Shown here piece after piece: positions 1,440-27,386 of a stretch of DNA of 45,030 bases (position 1 is its first letter; every line of letters starts with the position of its first letter). The notes beneath the pieces were generated by a model that was not told the DNA's origin, searched no databases, and saw only the letters and a program-made list of their open reading frames with translations. The DNA is from a virus (Duplodnaviria; Heunggongvirae; Uroviricota; Caudoviricetes). The translations under genes were made by a program, and so were the position numbers. The stretch is taken from positions 1 to 45,030 of IMG/VR virus record IMGVR_UViG_2851949629_000008; one strand, 5' to 3'.

Positions 1440-3275
1440 TCAATAGCGGATTGTCCCTACATCCATTTCTGGCGAATCCACTAACCAGAAATTATCTGGC
1501 TTTACAGCCAGAATGATCCAGGCAGTGTTTGTTGTTGATGACCAGGAAGGCAGCACATCGTATGCCGGGTCATCGCAAGAATCACGATAACCGTACTCAT
1601 TAAAAAGTGGAGCCATTGCTGCCACAAGATTCACCGCATTCAGCTCATTACCCAGCTTGCGCTCAAAAAGTGCCACACCTGCCGTTCCTTCCACCCACAC
1701 GCCACGGCTGTGACCACTATAACCATAATCAGGGTGGTACGGTGTGTAACCCGTGGTTTCCCTCGTACCAAATAAAAAACGCCCCATATATTTTCGGCAC
1801 TTAGCCGCTTTCTCAGCATCAATATTGGCAACAAACAATCCGCCCCAGGAAGACTGATCCAGCGCCGCTGCGTTGTCATAGTGGGTTGAATGAACCCCCT
1901 GTCGAAATCGGCCTTCATCTTCCACCCACAGACCTCTGATGATGCTCTTTGCCAGCCTGTCAGCCCGCTCACTGAAACCGTCAAATCCCAGCCGTCCCAT
2001 CAGTTCAAACAAAAACCAGATATCAACGTTATGCTCCAGTGCGCACCATTCGGCGACAAAAGTTTCATCAAAATTGCCGTCCACATAACGCCCCTGCCCC
2101 CCTTTATACAGGCCTTCACGCAGGTCGCCTGGTGTGCTCACCAGAAAAGTATCCAGCCAGGCAATGCCTGCCAATAGCTTTTCTCTGACCCGCGCAGTCT
2201 GAGTACCGTCCGGATACTTCTCCAGATAGAAAGCAAGAGCATAATAAACCCATGCCGCATTGCCCAAGCGGTAATAGGTACGCGGTGACATGGCAGACAG
2301 CCTGTTAACAAAAAACTTTACTCCACCGTTTTCATCAACAAGCGCACACAAGCCCGCAACGTATCTTTCTACAGCCTCATGTCGCTGAACCATCAACGCC
2401 AGTGCTGCCAGCGCCTGGTCATACGTGTAACACCGATCTTTCATCACCCTGATCACTTCGGGGTCTGCGTCCTCCGGCATCCAGTAGCTACGAATGAGCA
2501 GTGGAAACTCCAGCGTTGTGATCCACGCATTATCCTCAATCCGAATAAGACGAAACTGTTTTGCTCCCGTCCAGCAACGTCTGAAATAGAAAGTTCCGTC
2601 ACTATTCAAATTAGCGTCGCCGTTAAAATACTCTCCGGTTGTATAAGCATACATATCGACTTTATACTTTTCAGGTTCAGGAATATCGCAATATCCGTTA
2701 ACTGCACCGACATAATTAAAATCGATATTTTCTTTTATTTTTAAAGATATTGATGTATTAACAACCTCGGGTTGTTCCAGTTTTAACATTGCAGTAGTGC
2801 AACGACTCACGATGTCGTCAAAGTTCTCAAAGCGCAAACCGGGAAAACTATCGGCTATTCCCTGCATTTCAGACAGTAACGCTTCTGCCCTTTTTGTCGC
2901 TGATATTGCCACATCTGCACTTCGTTGCGCCTGACTTGTCAAATCTTCAAATCGTTTCACCACATCTGGCTTCAGGTCGCCTTCGTCGGGGGCAGTCAGA
3001 AAATCATTCAGCGTACCTGGTCTGGAACCTTCATAAACGGTAATGGTCCCGGCATGTGAAGGCGGAAAACCTTCAACCAACAGGGTGACGCTGTATTGAC
3101 CATACTCAACATCCATGCTGTAACGTCCAGCTTCATCCGGATTTTCTGAGGCCACCGTGTTCACCACAACCGTTGTGCTGTTACGTTTTGCCTTCAGTTG
3201 AATAGTGCAGTTCTGTATTGGTTTTCCCGCACCATCTTTCAGCACACCTGAGATTTTTACTGCTGCCATATCCAC
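1440..3275 (-). CDS. stf: Side tail fibre protein, chimeric: lambda Stf-like N-terminus with a distinct C-terminal domain
   Basis: First ~90 aa (MAAVKISGVLKDGAGKPIQNCTIQLKAKRNSTTVVVNTV...) match the lambda Stf N-terminus as recalled; the remaining ~500 aa are unrelated to lambda Stf; position after lom. Confidence 0.8.
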   Translation of the reverse strand: MDMAAVKISGVLKDGAGKPIQNCTIQLKAKRNSTTVVVNTVASENPDEAGRYSMDVEYGQYSVTLLVEGFPPSHAGTITVYEGSRPGTLNDFLTAPDEGDLKPDVVKRFEDLTSQAQRSADVAISATKRAEALLSEMQGIADSFPGLRFENFDDIVSRCTTAMLKLEQPEVVNTSISLKIKENIDFNYVGAVNGYCDIPEPEKYKVDMYAYTTGEYFNGDANLNSDGTFYFRRCWTGAKQFRLIRIEDNAWITTLEFPLLIRSYWMPEDADPEVIRVMKDRCYTYDQALAALALMVQRHEAVERYVAGLCALVDENGGVKFFVNRLSAMSPRTYYRLGNAAWVYYALAFYLEKYPDGTQTARVREKLLAGIAWLDTFLVSTPGDLREGLYKGGQGRYVDGNFDETFVAEWCALEHNVDIWFLFELMGRLGFDGFSERADRLAKSIIRGLWVEDEGRFRQGVHSTHYDNAAALDQSSWGGLFVANIDAEKAAKCRKYMGRFLFGTRETTGYTPYHPDYGYSGHSRGVWVEGTAGVALFERKLGNELNAVNLVAAMAPLFNEYGYRDSCDDPAYDVLPSWSSTTNTAWIILAVKPDNFWLVDSPEMDVGTIRY

Positions 3276-3323
3276 CCCACAAAAAAGCCCGCCAGAATAT
3301 GCGGGCTGTCATAACACTGCTAA

Positions 3324-3923
3324 TCAGAATTTATAACCGACACCCACGATAAAACCGTCAGTGCGCCAGTCACCACTGCCGGAGCCTTCATAAGCAATAT
3401 CAATGGCCACGGATTCGGTCGGGTTAAACTGCACGCCAGCCCCCCACGCCAGAGACGTGTTACTGTGGCGACCATCATCACTTGCGGTCAGCACATCGTG
3501 CGTTTTCCCCTTGTTGTCAGTTACGCGGAGATAATCCCCGGAGAAAGTCGAAACACGGCTGTAAGCCACACCCGCCATCGCATATGCGCTGAACCACTCA
3601 TTCACGCGCACAGATGGCCCCGCCATCATGCTGAACCAGCGGTTACGCACGGAATCTTCATGCCAGCGGGTATCACTGTAACGGGTAATCTGGCGATTCT
3701 TGTCTCCGGAATAACTGAATGACGTCACCAGCCCCAGCGTGTCCGTAAATTCATAACGGTATTTCACGTTAATGCCCTTCAGGTCATCGTTGCCGGGCAT
3801 ATCAGTATGGGACTGAATATACCCGGAGCTTAGTGTGGACTGATGCTCTGCTGCACTCGCTGGCGTACCAGCGGCGACCAGCCAGACTACTGCAGACAGA
3901 ATAACAGCACATAATTTACGCAT
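3324..3923 (-). CDS. lom: Lom outer membrane protein (Ail/Lom family)
   Basis: [12 protein letters not shown]... signal peptide, beta-barrel-like C-terminus ending GYKF, located after J as in lambda. Confidence 0.9.
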
Positions 3924-3990: not shown

Positions 3991-6900
3991 TCAGCTGATA
4001 CTGATGCCTGCGGTGGCTTTCTTCATCACCACAACCAGCAAATCGCTGATACTTGCTGTGGGATACCAGTTATTTACCAGCCATGCTGACACCGAAAACT
4101 CCAGTGTCATGTGACCGTGACCGGCAGGCATATCAATAACGCCACTGTAAATCAGCGTATTATCCAGCGCGGTACGGTTATAAATTTCAGCACCGTTTTT
4201 CCGCACTATCAGACGGCATGAGGAGTAAATATCAGTATGCTCTCTCTCATGCTTAGCGCCACTGAATGCCACCGCCGGAATAACAATTTGCCGGTCAAAC
4301 GGCTGATCGTCATAAACCCTGACGGTAATGGTCCTTGATGGCCACCGCTCCGGTGCTCGGGAGTCACGGGGGAAAGCTTTGCCCACTGTTTTAACGAGAT
4401 CGCCTTCAATCTGGTGCGCGGACAGTTTTCCCAGAACCCGACAGTTCTCGTTAATCGTGACGTTGTTGAGCGTCCCTGAGTTCGCATTCACGTTACCGCT
4501 GATATCGGCATTTTTAGCGGTCAGCTTTCCGTCCGGTGTCAGGGAAAATGCCGGCGGATTTCCACCGCTGGTAATGGTGGGAGCCGTCAGGCGTTTCAGG
4601 AACACGTCGTTCATGAATATCTGGTTGCCCTGCGCCACAAACATCGGCGTTTCATTCCCGTTTGCCGGGTCAATAAACGCGATACGGTTAGCGGCAACCA
4701 GAAACTGGCTCAGTTTGCCTTCCTCCGTGTCCTCCATGCTGAGGCCAATACCCGCGACATAATGTTTGCCGTCTTTGGTCTGCTCAATTTTGACAGCCCA
4801 CATGGCATTCCACTTATCGTTGGCGTCCTTCCACTCTTTCGAAAACTCCTCCAGTCTGCTGGCGTTATCCTCCGTCAGCTCGACTTTTTCCAGCAGCTCC
4901 TTGCCGAGATGGGATTCGGTTATCAGGCCTTTGAAAAAATCCAGGTAACCTTCCGCATCATCGCTCGCCCGACCGACGGCCTCCACGAATGCCGATTTGC
5001 CAACGGTGTTCACACTGCGGATATAAAAGTAATAATCATGGCCCGGTTTGATATTGATACTGGCGGCTATCCAGTACAGCCCCGTGCCAAGGTAGCGGGC
5101 TGTGGTTTCAACCTGCCTGATATCAGCAATCCGTTTTTCCGAGAACCAGAACTCAAACTGTACCGTCGGATCATAAACCGCAAGATGCGGCGTGGCGGTT
5201 ATCTGAAAATAGCCCGGCGTCAGCTCAATCCGCGACGGTGCTGCCGGTGCGGCAATCCGGAACGATACCGATGCCGGATCGCCCTGCTGTCCCCACGCAT
5301 TTACCGCCCGGACTGTCAGCCTGTAATTTCCTGGCGCCAGTTGCGTGAAGCGGTATGTAGTTTCCGTCGTCCTGGCCGTGCTGACCAGCCGCTCACTGCC
5401 ATCGTCCGCTGTTACGGTCAGACGGAGCAGGAAGCTCACGCCCTTCACCACCTTCGGTGTGTCCCATCGCGCCAGCACCTGATACTCCCCGCTGTCTGCG
5501 GTGACTTCGGCAGTCAGGTGCTGCACCGCTGGCGGCGTGACACCATTCACCGTGCCGCTCTGGTCGCCGTCAAAGTGCGCCCCGTTATCCACGATGGCTT
5601 CTTTTTCCGGTACATGCTGCACGGCGGTGATGGCATACGTGCCGTCGGCGTTCTCACGGATACTCACGCAGCGGAACAGGCGCTGGCGCAGCGTCGGCAG
5701 CTTCAGCCCCCACACGCTGTATTCAGCAACGCCGTCAGGAACACGGCTCACTTTCACCTTCACGCCGTCGGTGACGGACTGAACCTCCACGCTGACCGGA
5801 TTGCCACTTCCGTCAACCAGGCTTATCAGCGTGGTACCGGAGGATGGCAGCGTGATTTCACGGTCGAGCGTCAGCGTCCGGGTCTGGCTGTTTACCGCCA
5901 GCACGCGCCCGCCGGTGCTGATACCGGCATAGTCATCATCACAGATTTCAATGACATCGCCCGGCACATGGCGAAGCCCTTCGGCACCCACGCTGAAGTC
6001 CACGGTCTGCGTTTCCAGCAGTTCTGTTTTAATCAGCCACAGCCCGGCTCGGTGCGCCTGCCCCCGACTGGTACAGCCAAACGCATCCATCTTCGTGACG
6101 TTACGACCGTAACGGGCAATGGCCTGCGAGTCCTCCACAAGCTCTGTTGCCGTCTCCCAGCCGTTATCCGGGTCAATCCAGTTCACCTCAACGGCATTAT
6201 GGCGGTCTTTCAGGGCGCTGAAGCTGTAGCGGAACGGCGCGCCATCATCCGGCATCACCACATTACTGCGGTTATAGGTCCACACCTTATCTGATGGTCG
6301 GTCCTGCACGAACGTCAGCGTCTGCCCGTTCCATACCGGCATACAGCGCATCGCCGAGCAGAAATCACTGAGCACATCCCACGCCTTACGCTGCGTGGTA
6401 AGCCAGGCATTACAGGTGATGCGCGGCTCCGTGCCGCCAAAACCGTCCGGCACTGACTGGTCGCAGTACTGGCCGATGACATACAGCGCCCATTTATCCA
6501 CATCCGCCGCACCAAGACGTTTCCCCATGCCGTAGCGCGGGTGGGTCAGCATATCCCACAGACACCATGCCATGTTGTTGCTGTATGCCGGTTTAAACGT
6601 CCCGTCCCAGATACCGCTGTATTGCCGCGTCTGCGGGTTATAGTTCGATGGCACCTGCAGAATGCGCCCGCGAAGATGATAATTACGGCTCACCTGCTGG
6701 CTGCCGAACTGTTCCGAGTCCACCTGCACGCCGACCAGTGCCGTGTTCGGGTAGCACTGTTTCACATCGATGATTTCAGTGTATGACGACCAGAGCGTTT
6801 TGTTCTGCAGCTGGTCTGTGGTGCTGTCCGGCGTCATCCTGCGCATCCGGATATTGAACGGGCGCGGCGGCAGGTTACCCACCACCACCGAGGCCAGATA

Positions 6901-22960: not shown

Positions 22961-23206
22961 AAGGACCCGCCAAAATGAGAGTGATTATCACCATTGCTGA
23001 TGAATAAATTGATGAAAATCATTGAAACGCCTTTCAGCAAGATAACGGCGACGGTCGTTGTTGAACTCCGTAACTCTGCTACTAAGGTTAAAAGCATGGC
23101 CATCTTTTGCCACCGGCAAATCTTCAATGGATTTCCCCTGCCGGTTTTTTATTCCTCACATTATCGCAGCCCCTCAGTGAAGGGCTGCTGTAATGCCTGC
23201 TGTTAC

Positions 23207-23569
23207 TCAGTAACGACCGCGCCTTCCGGTAATTTCATACCGGCAAATACCGGACAGCCCGGGGATCGTTATCTGCAGCTGGTTAGCCAGGGAGTTAATC
23301 TCAGCGACCAACACTGGCTTCGTATAGCGCCATGCCGCCAGCCCTTGTCCACAGAAGCTCGCCATATCTTTTTTCTGATCAAACTCATGACACTTCATAT
23401 TGAGCTGCGCACTTAAGCTGTTGCGATGCTGAAGTTCTCCGGTGAAGTAATCATCCAGGACTTTATAGGCTGCATATTTTAATCCGGGGTTTAGCCATGC
23501 TGCATAATCATAAGCAACAAACTTCCCGCCATATGTTCCACCGTGTACACTGCGCTCAGTAAAAACCAC
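23207..23569 (-). CDS. Hypothetical protein (possibly KilA-N-like)
   Basis: ORF between Rz and cos; no confident family assignment from sequence alone. Confidence 0.3.
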   Translation of the reverse strand: MVFTERSVHGGTYGGKFVAYDYAAWLNPGLKYAAYKVLDDYFTGELQHRNSLSAQLNMKCHEFDQKKDMASFCGQGLAAWRYTKPVLVAEINSLANQLQITIPGLSGICRYEITGRRGRY

Positions 23570-23590
23570 AGATTCGTGTTTTTTCTCCAG

Positions 23591-24058
23591 CTACTTAATG
23601 CGCTGGGTGCGGATATATTCCTGCGCCCCTTCCAGTTGCTTCTGCATCGTCATCAACCGTTCTCTGAGGGTGAAATAATCCCGTTCAGCGGTGTCTGCCA
23701 GTCGGGGGCTGGTTGCATTATCCATGCTGGTGGGTCCGGTGGCTTCACGCACGGCTGCGGAGCAACTGGCATTGACCCGCAGGCGCTTACGACCAGCGGC
23801 AACATCAGCGCGCAGAGTTTCATTTTCAGTTTTCGCATCGGCTAACTCCTTCGTGTATTTTGCATCGATCGCAGCAACATCACGCTGACGCTGCTGCATG
23901 TCAGCGATGGTGGCGGTCGCCTGCTTCAGCTCACTGACTTTTTTATCACGCTGTTCTTTGTAGGCGATGGCGTTATCACGGTAATGATTCAGCCCCAGAC
24001 TAAGCACAACACAGGCCACCAGCAGCATAGCAATCACTACATACAGAACACGGTTCAT
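23591..24058 (-). CDS. Rz: i-spanin Rz
   Basis: MNRVLYVVIAMLLVACVV...NHYRDNAIAYKEQRDK closely matches lambda Rz; track ORF extends to a GTG at 24142. Confidence 0.85.
   Translation of the reverse strand: MNRVLYVVIAMLLVACVVLSLGLNHYRDNAIAYKEQRDKKVSELKQATATIADMQQRQRDVAAIDAKYTKELADAKTENETLRADVAAGRKRLRVNASCSAAVREATGPTSMDNATSPRLADTAERDYFTLRERLMTMQKQLEGAQEYIRTQRIK
23653..23838 (-). CDS. Rz1: o-spanin Rz1 (lipoprotein, nested in Rz in the +1 frame)
   Basis: MRKLKMKLCALMLPLVVSACGS...CVKPPDPPAWIMQPAPDWQTPLNGIISPSENG matches lambda Rz1. Confidence 0.85.
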   Translation of the reverse strand: MRKLKMKLCALMLPLVVSACGSMPVAPQPCVKPPDPPAWIMQPAPDWQTPLNGIISPSENG

Positions 24059-24760
24059 ATCACCACCAACGGATTGCCCAGACCAGAACAGCGACCGCCA
24101 CAAGGCGAATTGCAAAGGCCGTTGCCCGAATAAAATCAGCACTCATCTGTTTAAATAAATTGTTGTGTATGCAACCAGTGCAGTACAAATAATCCATGCA
24201 ACTGGCGTCAGTATATGTCTGATGCCCCGGCATACCGCGATGATTTTTGCGGCATCGTCAGCACCCTGCGAAGTTGTTTCTGCTTTTATCATCAGTTGCC
24301 ATGTCCCTCATGACACCCATCACCACTCACGATTTCAGAGCAACAATCAATTTTGCCAGCCCATACAGCATCGGAGACACGGCGATGCCAACCGCCACCC
24401 ACTTAATGGCAAAAGCCACCGCCCGGATAAGGCAGAGATTCGCCGTATTTTCTGTCTTATCTACAAACATATGCTATCGCTGCAACCGCAAAACCAATTG
24501 CCCCGATCATTGCCGATAATGCAAGAATAATTCCGGCAATATTTGCTGCTTTAGGTGTCATACTGCACCCTATACTCAGAAAGGTTTTATTGTTATCCTT
24601 TACCTGCATGAATTATATCCATGTCTGATTTGTCAAAATGCAACCCCGGACTGTTCCCCCAGCCGGGGTTTTACTTTTATTCACTTACCTTTTGCCAGTT
24701 TGCAGGATTTCGTGTTATCCGCTCGCGGGAGCACACGCCATTTTTCAGCAAAATATTCTG

Positions 24761-25294
24761 CTAGCTGTCGATACCCCAGCACACCAGTGCCGCTTCCTGG
24801 TCACGGCGAATAACCTGTCCATAGCAGTTATTTGAAAGTATGCGGCAATCGCGCCCACCATCTTTTATCCACCAGCGAATCGCCTCGCATGCACCCTTAC
24901 GATCACCGGCATTCAGCCGCTTATAAAACGTCGACGGGAAACACTTACCGGGGCCAATGTTATAGGGACAAAATGACGCTATACCCGCTTTCTGTGGTTC
25001 GGTCAGTGGTACTTTAATATTGCGCTCCACCCATGCCAGCGCCTTATCACGTTCAATAGCGTTAACCTGGTCGCATTCTTCCTTCGACAGCTTCATTCCC
25101 GGTATGACGGGCTTACCATCCACCATTGTGGCACCACGACAGATGGTCCATATACCGGAACCATCGCGGTATGCCGTAGTGTGGTTACCCTCTTTTTCAT
25201 CCAGAAACTGGTCAAGTATTTGAGGAGCAGACGCGCCTGCAGCAATCAGCGCCAGAACAGCAGCTGACAGGCCGTATTTGATTTTTGCGCTCAT
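24761..25294 (-). CDS. R: SAR endolysin (GH24 lysozyme, phage-21 R / RrrQ-like)
   Basis: 177 aa; N-terminal weakly hydrophobic SAR segment (LSAAVLALIAAGASA); lysozyme-like core. Confidence 0.85.
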   Translation of the reverse strand: MSAKIKYGLSAAVLALIAAGASAPQILDQFLDEKEGNHTTAYRDGSGIWTICRGATMVDGKPVIPGMKLSKEECDQVNAIERDKALAWVERNIKVPLTEPQKAGIASFCPYNIGPGKCFPSTFYKRLNAGDRKGACEAIRWWIKDGGRDCRILSNNCYGQVIRRDQEAALVCWGIDS

Positions 25295-25349
25295 GGATAT
25301 TTATCAGGATGCTACCAATGAAAGATACTGGAAAGCCAACTGCAAAAAG

Positions 25350-25664
25350 CTAACAACCCGTAATCGAGTTATCAGAACTGTTAATTTTTATGGTATACCG
25401 CGCCTCTGAACAGGGGCGCGTTTCTGGCAACAGCTCGTCCCCTTCACATAACCCGGCAGCAACATCCAGGAAGACCTGTCTGATGCTCCTTCTGGCTGCT
25501 GCCTCATAAAACTCCAGCGCTGCACCTTCAACACGGTCCAGCGAGATGTCCAGGTCAAAAATTTCACCGTCAAAGCGTTTTTTGTCCCGTAACGCTAAAG
25601 TTACCGTAACTTTATTCTCAAAATTGCGGATCCCTTTCACAATCAGTTCATAGTTTTGAATCAT
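25350..25664 (-). CDS. YdfR-like protein (DUF1327-type) between holin and endolysin
   Basis: 104 aa in the same position as ydfR in the Qin essQ-ydfR-rrrQ cassette. Confidence 0.55.
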   Translation of the reverse strand: MIQNYELIVKGIRNFENKVTVTLALRDKKRFDGEIFDLDISLDRVEGAALEFYEAAARRSIRQVFLDVAAGLCEGDELLPETRPCSEARYTIKINSSDNSITGC

Positions 25665-25668
25665 TGAA

Positions 25669-25884
25669 TTACTCTCCCCGTGCAGCCTTACGCTTGTCTT
25701 CTCTGATTTTGAAGTACAGATTTGTCAGATAAGTCAGGAAGCCCAGAATCAGACTCCCCAGTACACCAATCGCAGCCCACTGTGACGGACTGACCTGATC
25801 AAGCCACTGTAAAAACCAGTAGCCAGCACTGCCTGCGGAGGTGCCATAGGCAATGCCCGTTGAAATTTTGTCCATGGATTTCAT
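25669..25884 (-). CDS. S: Pinholin S21-like (dual-start MKSM...)
   Basis: [63 protein letters not shown] matches phage-21 S / EssQ. Confidence 0.9.
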
Positions 25885-25943
25885 AGCCTCACCTCCGCAA
25901 ATAACGGATGGCGTAGTTTTACACTGAGAAATGAAAGGGATTT

Positions 25944-25969
25944 GAAAAGAAAAGCCCGCAAAAGCGGGC
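25944..25969 (-). terminator. Rho-independent terminator between the tRNA cluster and S
   Basis: GCCCGC-(4 nt loop)-GCGGGC hairpin followed on the minus strand by TTTTCTTTTC. Confidence 0.55.
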
Positions 25970-26176
25970 GAAACGATATATACAGTAAGGAAAGCACTCT
26001 ATCCAACAAACCACCCACAGTTAATCGGAATAAAAGCAGAGTGCTTATGAATGATCGCCTGCCCGAAGGTTAGTATTTCTGCACAGCAATTTTGCAAAAA
26101 AAGGCGATCATTCATAACTTAAACGTCTTTCAGTCACTCCGGGATTTCCCATCATCGCAGACTGAAAGACTCTGAC

Positions 26177-26251
<75 letters not shown>

Positions 26252-26254
26252 ATA

Positions 26255-26330
<76 letters not shown>

Positions 26331-26332
26331 AC

Positions 26333-26409
26333 TGGACCGCCACCGGGGACTCGAACCTCGCACACTCAACTTAAAGGGTTGACGCTCTTTCCTGATGAGC
26401 CAGTGGCGG
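26333..26409 (-). tRNA. tRNA-like gene, anticodon loop CCUUUAA (UUU, Lys-type; C33 is noncanonical)
   Basis: 77 nt, 7-bp acceptor stem, T-loop TTCGAGT, CCA end; one A-C mismatch in the T-stem. Confidence 0.4.
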
Positions 26410-26410
26410 T

Positions 26411-26486
26411 TGGTGGCCCTTGCTGGATTTGAACCAGCGACCTGGCGATTATGAGTCGCTCGCTCTCACCACTGAGCTAAAGGGCC
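26411..26486 (-). tRNA. tRNA with CAU anticodon (Ile2/ileX-like or Met)
   Basis: GGCCCTTTAGCTCAGTGG...CTCATAA...GGTTCAAATCC resembles E. coli ileX as recalled. Confidence 0.7.
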
Positions 26487-26604
26487 GGGCGCAGGATAAT
26501 AACGTTACGAAATCAATGTTGCAAGCATTCAAGAATTACCTGGTTAAAAATTACCCTTACTTCCTCCACCAGCGCATTCACCATGTCTATCCGAGATAAG
26601 TGGC

Positions 26605-26684: not shown

Positions 26685-26713
26685 AATATATGCCTTTCAA
26701 TCTGCTTTTGCAA
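26685..26713 (-). promoter_or_regulatory. Candidate late promoter (pR'-like) overlapping the 3' end of the Q-like gene
   Basis: Minus strand TTGCAA-17 nt-TATATT; by-eye sigma70 match only. Confidence 0.3.
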
Positions 26714-27386
26714 CACTTTGCTTTGAAAATGCCGCCTTTTGTTTTGAACGTGTTCTCATTACAAACAATAAAGCCTCACTATCCAGTCGGTGAAAAATGT
26801 GTTTCATTGCAACCCAGTGACGAGTAAATGTTTTGGACCAGTTTTTAGTTGTCACTCCCGCCAGTAATGCCAGCTCCTGGTATTCATAACCTTCCCCACC
26901 AAAAAGTTCTGCTTTTACTTCCTGCGCCGCCAGCCAGATTAATTTTTTCAGGCGTTCCTGCGTTTTCCCTGCAATTTTTCTGGTACCGGATTGAGTATTA
27001 AATTCATTCCACGCCCACTGTGTTATCGCGATCTGATATTCCCAACAAATACTCCCGCTGTAACACCACAACAACCAGGCTTTATGATGTTCTTCAAGAG
27101 ACAGAACCGCCCGCCGCCACGATGATGTCGAAAACTCAACCGGACTGACCAGAGGAATTGACGTCCCCTTCGCCAGCGATTGCTTTCCCGGGATTGGTGG
27201 ATTATCCCGCGTTATCATTTTTCCAGTCACTTCATCGCGGTACCGGATTTTTTTACGCCTGTAACGCCCTGTATCAAACATGGCATTCTCCTGCCAGGCC
27301 TCAAGCTGCCCTTTTGTTGATCCACTCAAATCGGCGGTGGCAATCATGAGTTGCTCACGAACAAACTGTAAATACTGGTTATTCAT
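26697..27386 (-). CDS. Putative late antiterminator Q (QuuQ-type family)
   Basis: 229 aa directly upstream of the tRNA cluster and lysis cassette, downstream of rusA; assignment by position and recalled family resemblance. Confidence 0.45.
   Translation of the reverse strand: MNNQYLQFVREQLMIATADLSGSTKGQLEAWQENAMFDTGRYRRKKIRYRDEVTGKMITRDNPPIPGKQSLAKGTSIPLVSPVEFSTSSWRRAVLSLEEHHKAWLLWCYSGSICWEYQIAITQWAWNEFNTQSGTRKIAGKTQERLKKLIWLAAQEVKAELFGGEGYEYQELALLAGVTTKNWSKTFTRHWVAMKHIFHRLDSEALLFVMRTRSKQKAAFSKQSVAKAD

Follow-up and report, generated by a model that had tools for sequence, protein, structure and literature searches.

What are the small open reading frames (ORFs) that separate the endolysin gene R from the i-spanin gene Rz in the IMG/VR virus record IMGVR_UViG_2851949629_000008? 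The window analysed here is the whole 45,030-nucleotide (nt) stretch of this record (Caudoviricetes), which is an Escherichia coli lambdoid prophage with its late genes on the minus strand. A preliminary description of this DNA had noted three minus-strand ORFs between R and Rz and suggested for them small membrane proteins modulating lysis, toxin-like peptides or a non-coding remnant. We identified four ORFs in the interval, here named A to D in the order of the late genes (Table 1). All four are protein-coding genes under purifying selection at the protein level, and the interval is, judging by its homologues, a slot for hypervariable cargo within the late operon of the prophage. We incline slightly towards the view that the ORFs encode mobile accessory membrane microproteins of the moron type, with a membrane target outside the core lysis pathway, for example in the exclusion of other phages.

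The extent of the interval follows from the start of Rz. A 183-amino-acid (aa) ORF can be read for Rz from GTG 24142, which is over-extended: the true start is ATG 24058, the equivalent of which is used by the Prokaryotic Genome Annotation Pipeline (PGAP) in a 99.9%-identical genome, and Rz homologues open with MNRVL or MSRV at this same position. With the Rz start so corrected, the R-Rz interval covers positions 24059-24760. The spacer of the preliminary description thus exists, with a length of 702 nt instead of roughly 600 bp and with different borders. The over-extended Rz ORF masked the 28-aa gene D, which that description did not contain. Thirty complete E. coli genomes match a 901-nt query across the interval (24000-24900) at 99.6-99.9% identity. 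The G+C content of the interval (0.43-0.49, against 0.49-0.55 in its flanks) is not distinctive.

ORFs A, B and C were found where they had been placed before. The hydrophobic core described for each is also confirmed: every one has a single long hydrophobic stretch, as does D, with 19-residue Kyte-Doolittle windows of 1.86-2.54 among the four. The core of A, MTPKAANIAGIILALSAMIGAIGFAVAAIAYVCR, starts at an ATG preceded by AGGGTG and forms a single hydrophobic helix with Gly/Ala/Ser residues at a spacing of 3-4; its homologues fall into 5 clusters, Citrobacter among them. ORF B (core RAVAFAIKWVAVGIAVSPMLYGLAKLIVALKS) overlaps the end of A by 14 nt and has homologues in 88 clusters from E. coli and Salmonella. 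ORF C has 29 homologous clusters in the same two genera, at 65-98% identity, and its AlphaFold2 model consists of one helix (residues 8-48) with a mean predicted local distance difference test score of 81. The stop of C shares the sequence ATGA with the start of D, and the stop of D lies 1 nt ahead of the Rz ATG (TGGTGGTGA-T-ATG). The same 1-nt joint to Rz is seen in 25 loci with a D-type ORF and 29 loci with an E-type ORF, 54 in total. PGAP annotates two of the four ORFs, B and D.

The substitution pattern in all four frames is that of genes. Variable sites at codon positions 1/2/3 number 5/5/20 in A, 14/11/23 in B, 16/8/36 in C and 11/5/18 in D. The ratio of non-synonymous to synonymous polymorphism (pN/pS), as a pooled pairwise estimate made without a tree and from a small number of alleles (3 for A and 7 for C), is 0.16 for A, 0.21 for C, 0.28 for B and 0.35 for D. 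In A and C, the peptides are nearly constant at a synonymous divergence of about 0.6. The frame is open in all alleles of A (n=3), C (n=7) and D (n=8), while B carries an internal stop in one of 14 alleles. Thus the reading frames, whose conservation in related lysis cassettes the preliminary description had proposed as a check, are kept open across divergent homologues from E. coli, Salmonella and Citrobacter. In the remaining two sense frames, which stops interrupt, the ratios are 0.8-2.8; the antisense frame with common third positions mimics the signal, as expected, and is not consistently open. We also counted sense-strand ATG ORFs of at least 25 aa containing a 19-residue window with a Kyte-Doolittle mean of at least 1.6. 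The interval has 4 of them, whereas 2000 dinucleotide-preserving shuffles had a mean of 0.19 (standard deviation 0.42) and none reached 4. With one hydrophobic stretch each, a single modelled helix for C and purifying selection on their frames, the ORFs qualify as the small membrane-protein genes that the preliminary description had suspected. A 121-aa ORF on the plus strand (24165-24530, antisense to B and C) was rejected as a gene, its variation peaking at codon position 1 with a pN/pS of 0.8-1.2 and stops in some alleles. By this substitution pattern it is a by-product of the hydrophobic sense genes; similar antisense ORFs are seen in loci L004 and L005.

For A and C, the start itself may be double. 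A 50-aa form of A from ATG 24609 is possible, because the NKTFL codons upstream of the core show synonymous differences only, among three contexts. We discarded the idea that this long form is a lipoprotein (LSIGC), as there is no signal-peptide core or preceding hydrophobic region and the cysteine is a glycine in homologues. An upstream in-frame start also exists in many alleles of C, where a stop follows it in Salmonella; the conserved form of C is therefore the 49-aa one, and the long form is not required. When the segment 24561-24609 was compared with the C-family proteins P0004-P0007 and P0026-P0029, long-form A (MQVKDNNKTF...) and long-form C (MQVKxNTxKDKFGDDLM...) had the same N-terminal beginning and the same 16-codon in-frame extension before the conserved methionine. 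This likeness suggests a common 5' module, possibly with two starts per gene.

The conserved leader that follows R was used as a probe and retrieved 120 viral contigs with 66 distinct R-to-Rz intervals, from 296 to 2101 nt long. Each interval carries between one and four micro-genes, and at least five families are represented (A, B/D, C, E/X and Y), in 11 architectures: E (29 loci), B-Y (22), X-Y-B-D (13), Y (7), A-B-C-D (6), D (4), X-Y (3), B-D (2), Y-D (2), Y-B (1) and X-Y-D (1). The longer intervals add an antirepressor gene (P22_AR_N or ANT/KilAC) or a DNA methylase gene (N6_N4_Mtase or MethyltransfD12). Number and order of the micro-genes vary within one slot, and so do N-terminal chimeras between them; the families behave as independent modules. 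In-frame chimeras, a further sign that the frames are coding, are Y/C (MSDKLITLPRGADDAAKIIAVCRG..., locus L129), C/B (MMIKAETT...AVAFAIKW, P0058) and D/B (MSADFIRAVAFAIKW, P0037). L129 (at 2828-3236), P0058, P0037 and P0062 exchange the N-terminal segments MSDKLIT.., MIKAETT.., MSADFIR.. and MKNGLEL.. among Y, C, D and B, and their joints lie at short common sequences such as ACTGATGA.

The final small ORF of an interval nearly always ends at TGGTGGTGAnATG(Rz). Methylase genes of the N6_N4 and D12 types were found inserted exactly between the last micro-gene and Rz (the 1414-2101-nt classes; for example L058, L062, L063, L067 and L077), and one methylase ends in ...EMVVI*, reusing the TGGTGGTGATATG nucleotides in another frame. 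Because methylases enter exactly there and one of them reuses its nucleotides, the TGGTGGTGAnATG motif belongs to the translation start of Rz and to a recombination joint. Part of the C-terminal IRWW of D is then a nucleotide-level constraint, since the motif serves the Rz start and ribosome-binding site.

The interval is not a fixed part of the cassette. The earlier statement that R and Rz are normally adjacent is right for the K-12 prophage Qin and for phage vB_EcoS-640R1, in which R and Rz overlap with no interval and no small ORF, the Rz of the latter being 74% identical to Rz here. It does not describe the many genomes with related cargo: 1882 of the 5426 complete E. coli genomes (about a third) contain DNA related to B/C/D, O157:H7 and ST131 strains among them, at up to 7 places per genome.

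Members of the same families were identified in quite different surroundings. Family C is found in Salmonella behind tail-fibre genes, where it overlaps the start of a DUF1353 gene (L126-128); in read-archive assemblies it follows a large tail protein gene near KilA-N and integrase genes (L134-136) or int-alpA (L132). Family A follows the tail-fibre genes of a Baseplate_J phage in Citrobacter, with C directly next to it (L130), and lies in E. coli at a prophage end beside host genes (a Ni_hydr_CYTB-family gene and ZinT; L131). In Salmonella, family B is located between a SASA tail fibre and DUF1353 (L138), and between Rz and a lysozyme gene that is accompanied by a holin_2_3 holin (L139-141). 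One array, X(truncated)-B-Y/C-D, lies between an M15-peptidase endolysin gene (with holin_8 and holin_3_7) and Rz (L129). There is accordingly no constant cognate holin: the ORFs are accompanied by S21-type, holin_2_3 or holin_8/holin_3_7 holins, or have no holin nearby, and the cassettes with B/D-type ORFs by themselves include three holin types, unrelated to one another, and endolysins of two types. A micro-gene directly upstream of DUF1353 and after tail fibres was seen both for family C (L126 at 3001-3509, with a stop/start overlap) and for family B (L138 at 2501-3025). TtaP, a phospholipase A2 of the typhoid-toxin islet, is a member of the DUF1353 family (PMC11525133). The recurrence of this pairing suggests a functional link.

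Profile comparisons show that B and D are paralogues (hhalign probability 93%, E-value = 3e-7), while A and C are separate families. A relationship of C to B/D, first judged by eye, was not supported by hhalign (E-value = 0.44 and 0.06). The match of E to X (99%) was set aside, the X set having included one E sequence, and the E/X link rests only on a common DFSKLIRE..WKF motif. Among PHROGs, A corresponds to phrog_12997 (E-value = 5e-7), B to phrog_1115 (E-value = 4e-19) and D to phrog_4493 (E-value = 2e-6), all of "unknown function". Sequence searches of Pfam, NCBIfam and PDB gave no match, vinculin and PsbX at E-values of 0.5-0.9 being noise. No holin or antiholin family of Pfam or NCBIfam was matched, and the sole PHROG "holin" match was that of A (E-value = 0.036). 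Eight micro-proteins had no PADLOC match at E-values up to 1. Rfam, searched over 23000-26500 at E-values up to 1, returned nothing besides four tRNAs, and neither a type I toxin family nor an antitoxin RNA was found in Pfam or Rfam. The B/D profile retrieved only 18 clusters at 50% identity from 1.84 billion proteins; all of these are at most 87 aa long, and the B/D helix is thus never part of a larger protein. A degenerate B pattern gave only four chance matches, in unrelated taxa, among species-representative genomes, from which we conclude that the family is a strain-level accessory. B occurs in isolated (plaque-forming) or induced coliphages. For A and C, tblastn found no relative among isolated phage genomes, the probable cause being the low-complexity filter. 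In genome contigs, an alignment of C gave pattern matches of which none passed tblastn, the query being too short for it. By these searches, the families are small and restricted to enterobacterial prophages. No paper mentioning the ORFs was found in a literature search that included a full-text search for peptide strings, and they are not described in a survey of the lysis cassettes of Shiga toxin (Stx) phages (PMC8136144) or in a spanin survey (PMC6139136).

The segment between R and ORF A has a constant organisation. The untranslated leader is common to every version of the interval. Over positions 1-97 of the query, many E. coli genomes match at 84-91% identity, and no feature is annotated there; a 700-nt interval query matched 2235 of 5426 E. 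coli genomes, matches at positions 1-97 only included. There are 55 distinct leader variants, and in L129 the leader also follows the unrelated M15-peptidase endolysin. Between constant flanks it holds a hypervariable patch of 12-15 nt, often palindromic (for instance CGTTGGCCAACG), with no Rfam match. The leader may serve as an RNA element or as a linker for recombination. It is followed by a G+C-rich hairpin that looks like a bidirectional intrinsic terminator, a terminator-like site being called at 24662-24646 on the minus strand. Its consensus stem has 10 pairs over 10 contexts, with compensatory changes in 3 pairs. In all genomic contexts examined, the micro-genes have this same hairpin ahead of them: with homologues of A and C it was seen in L126, L130, L131, L132 and L134, and L131 has one on each side of A. 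Beyond the hairpin, a perfect TATAAT is a candidate -10 element. A perfect TTGACA at 24631-24636 is only 13 nt from it, a spacing improper for a -35 element. Hexamers resembling a -10 element occur elsewhere as TGgTAAAAT (L134), GATAAT (L132) and TTTAAT (L130).

Table 1. Features of the lysis region, in the order of the late genes (positions in the window)
Feature	Position	Strand	Remarks
Q antiterminator	26697-27386	-	first in late-gene order
Four tRNA genes	26180-26486	-	Q-holin gap, head of late operon; Rfam scan; annotated by PGAP in a near-identical genome as Ile, Lys, Thr and Gly
S21-type class II holin	25669-25884	-	
DUF1327/YdfR-family gene	25350-25664	-	holin-endolysin gap
SAR-type endolysin R, 177 aa	24761-25294	-	left border of interval; PGAP "rrrQ: lysozyme" on a 99.9%-identical genome
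Untranslated leader	24671-24760	-	directly after endolysin stop; GCAGAATATTTTGCTGAAAAATG...GGATAACACGAA
G+C-rich hairpin	24642-24670	.	AACCCCGG CTG ... CAG t CCGGGGTT; 5' A-run, 3' T-rich run
TATAAT, perfect	24612-24617	-	about 45 nt ahead of ATG 24561; candidate -10
ORF A, 34 aa	24457-24561	-	core form, ATG 24561; 50 aa from ATG 24609
ORF B, 47 aa	24327-24470	-	PGAP WP_000496062.1
ORF C, 49 aa	24143-24292	-	core KAETTxQGADxAAKIIAVCRGIRHILTPVAW
ORF D, 28 aa	24060-24146	-	MSADFIRATAFAIRLVAVAVLVWAIRWW; PGAP WP_085950722.1
Rz, i-spanin, 155 aa	23591-24058	-	right border of interval; PGAP "lysis protein", 468 nt
Rz1	23653-23838	-	embedded in Rz; lipobox VVSAC
ORF11CD3-domain gene, 120 aa	23207-23569	-	directly after Rz; terminase genes then follow

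Two properties of morons are found here: the genes are present or absent at the same junction in close relatives, and an intrinsic terminator is associated with them, upstream of the array. On this reading, the four genes would share the Q-antiterminated late transcript with S, R and Rz. The transcribing enzyme is probably an antiterminated polymerase that ignores the hairpin, because no promoter-like site is detectable ahead of the array and the array is located in the Q-dependent late operon. Translation would run as a chain that ends in Rz, through the A/B overlap, the ATGA shared by C and D, and the single nucleotide between the D stop and the Rz ATG. The peptides would be inserted in the inner membrane as single helices and may act by helix-helix contact with a membrane target. 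Their role would be the exclusion of phages at the membrane level or the modulation of host membrane proteins, with a side effect on lysis timing as a possibility.

Several observations weigh against this interpretation. By a consensus scan, the minus strand of the interval has no promoter-like (sigma-70-like) site ahead of the array, so that expression in the lysogen, the hallmark of a moron, is only hypothetical. The chaining of starts and stops into Rz implies that the lysis proteins and the peptides are produced at the same time. The chief objection is that the gene just downstream of B or C is envelope-active in two contexts (Rz here, DUF1353 in Salmonella), and with such neighbours the peptides could have an envelope or lysis role. 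The Gly/Ala/Ser spacing in helix A is typical of oligomerising holin or toxin helices. The peptides have no similarity to the known exclusion and defence proteins represented by PADLOC models, we found no experiment of any kind on these ORFs, and the pN/pS values have the limits of pooled estimates given above.

The ORFs might instead be dedicated lysis regulators, that is, antiholin-like or holin-like helpers, "releasin"-like factors for the SAR (signal-anchor-release) endolysin, or partners of the spanin helix, acting as non-essential tuners of the time or completeness of lysis. We consider this doubtful. The ORFs are located within the lysis cassette and on the strand of the lysis genes. 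The stop of D abuts the Rz start, a joint kept in 54 loci, and the families sit at the endolysin-spanin junction in three cassette types. Where B and C have DUF1353 downstream as an alternative partner, this gene, from a phospholipase A2 family, is also envelope-active. Helix A has the Gly/Ala/Ser zipper and the weak PHROG "holin" match mentioned above. However, A, B and C are also found at sites distant from all lysis genes. The same families are accompanied by unrelated holins and endolysins, whereas antiholins are normally holin-specific. The Qin cassette and the one with the 74%-identical Rz have no such ORF at all. The ORFs vary freely, from one to four in 11 architectures, and none has a significant match to a holin or antiholin family. 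The antiholin or spanin-accessory role put forward in the preliminary description is thus unsupported as stated, given the families away from lysis genes, the several holin and endolysin types and the related cassettes lacking the ORFs. Nor are the peptides built like spanins, as they stop 2-3 residues past the helix and have no periplasmic domain or lipoprotein signal. A weaker form, in which some of the ORFs, especially D next to Rz, tune lysis in a non-essential way, seems to us possible but on balance unlikely.

We give comparably limited credence to a broader proposal, that the R-Rz junction is a diversifying cassette of interchangeable 28-50-aa membrane helices whose N-terminal and helix segments recombine for new specificities. 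Acting at the inner membrane, such a cassette might be a rapidly evolving layer of phage-versus-phage exclusion, or a set of tunable modifiers of the pinholin, SAR endolysin or spanin. If true, the junction would be for microproteins what the known defence hot spots are for larger genes, and roughly one E. coli genome in three would carry it.

Considerably less probable are pore-forming peptides like type I toxins or abortive-infection proteins, kept in check by antisense RNA or low translation, that would stabilise the prophage or abort superinfection. The size of 28-50 aa and the single hydrophobic helix suit such a function; a hok/gef gene belongs to the same accessory region in the Salmonella prophage L126, and the upstream hairpin could terminate antisense transcripts too. 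Against it, no Rfam family other than tRNAs (E-values up to 1) and no Pfam toxin family was matched, and the plus strand of 24059-24760 has no antisense promoter-like site by consensus scan, the only method applied. An overlapping tandem leading into Rz is unlike known type I loci, and four families side by side would need an antitoxin each. The toxin-like peptides of the preliminary description therefore find no positive evidence in the lack of Rfam and Pfam matches and of any promoter-like site for an antisense transcript.

A purely translational relay, in which the interval only hands ribosomes on from R to Rz and the peptides have no function of their own, is still harder to accept. It would explain the start/stop overlaps and the conserved TGGTGGTGAnATG joint, and the same nucleotides are kept where a methylase gene in another frame abuts Rz. 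It does not explain why amino acids are conserved while synonymous sites diverge (pN/pS 0.16-0.35) or why a hydrophobic helix is retained in every family, and A, B and C are found with no Rz downstream. Finally, a non-coding remnant with chance ORFs, to which one might point because PGAP calls only two of the four ORFs and no curated family matches, is refuted by the excess of third-position changes, the open frames in divergent alleles from E. coli, Salmonella and Citrobacter, the shuffle test and the existence of PHROG families for A, B and D, and can be dismissed almost with certainty.

Lambdoid morons are extra genes between conserved late genes, such as bor beside Rz in lambda and the morons of HK97 and HK022 (Hendrix, Juhala and colleagues). 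Like them, the micro-genes occur in some phages and are missing in close relatives, are inserted exactly at gene boundaries of the late operon, carry an intrinsic-terminator hairpin, and occupy positions classic for morons (within the lysis region, behind the tail-fibre genes and beside int); the slot is also used by conflict cargo (antirepressors and methylases). Unlike them, they have no promoter of their own that a consensus scan detects, their terminator lies upstream and not downstream, they are chained translationally into Rz, and at 28-50 aa they are far smaller than bor or lom. A shuffling array with N-terminal chimeras is a further difference.

Accessory membrane proteins of lysis cassettes offer a second comparison. 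P2 LysA, a membrane protein with several membrane helices, is the product of a non-essential timing gene at the endolysin-spanin position; P1 LydB and the Mu gp25 "releasin" are others of this kind. The micro-genes resemble P2 lysA in encoding a membrane protein between the endolysin and spanin genes that is co-made with the lysis proteins. LysA, LydB and gp25 differ in being larger and in belonging to one cassette type each, whereas the families here are single-helix, accompany holins and endolysins of several types and are found outside lysis cassettes as well. With the S21 pinholin/antiholin the ORFs have in common that the product is a small inner-membrane protein, and the small-residue spacing of helix A resembles that of the pinholin helix. 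The in-frame start about 16 codons upstream of the conserved start, in A and in many C alleles, is loosely like a dual-start motif. In contrast, the peptides have one helix against two and no sequence similarity to S21, and in Salmonella a stop removes the upstream start of C.

Type I toxins (Hok/Gef, TisB, Ibs, Ldr) are likewise peptides of 20-50 aa with a single hydrophobic helix and frequent in prophages; the ORFs differ from these in having no family match and no signal of an antisense RNA or its promoter, and in forming an overlapping tandem inside an operon. Iap of Pseudomonas phage D3, a very small (31 aa) inhibitor of a host membrane enzyme, is similar in size, in hydrophobicity, in the proximity to tail-fibre or tailspike genes in some contexts and in the proposed helix-helix binding in the membrane. 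No sequence relation to Iap is known, and O-antigen genes are not found near the micro-genes.

What is new here is a group of uncharacterised accessory small membrane-protein genes, notable for their prevalence, their modular shuffling and their place in a textbook lysis cassette. Genes this small are routinely missed in annotation, and the corrected Rz start and gene D matter for annotating such cassettes. If the ORFs exclude phages, they would represent a new kind of prophage-encoded protection; if they tune lysis, the timing of phage and toxin release would be affected. The system is simple to test, with four short ORFs and natural variants that carry one to four of them.

The endolysin R has the N-terminal sequence KYGLSAAVLALIAAGASAP in translation. 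The DUF1327/YdfR gene between holin and endolysin is a further accessory gene with no assigned function inside the cassette; just downstream of it, on the opposite strand, PGAP places a 90-aa hypothetical protein in a near-identical genome (L001 at 2229-2501). The ORF11CD3 domain of the gene directly after Rz is also the C-terminus of antirepressor-type cargo (P22_AR_N) in the R-Rz slot of other phages. In L126, the hok/gef-family gene (5106-5243) follows the C-family micro-gene at a distance of about 2 kb, and in L129 a gene for a pertussis-like toxin subunit is located just upstream of the lysis cassette.

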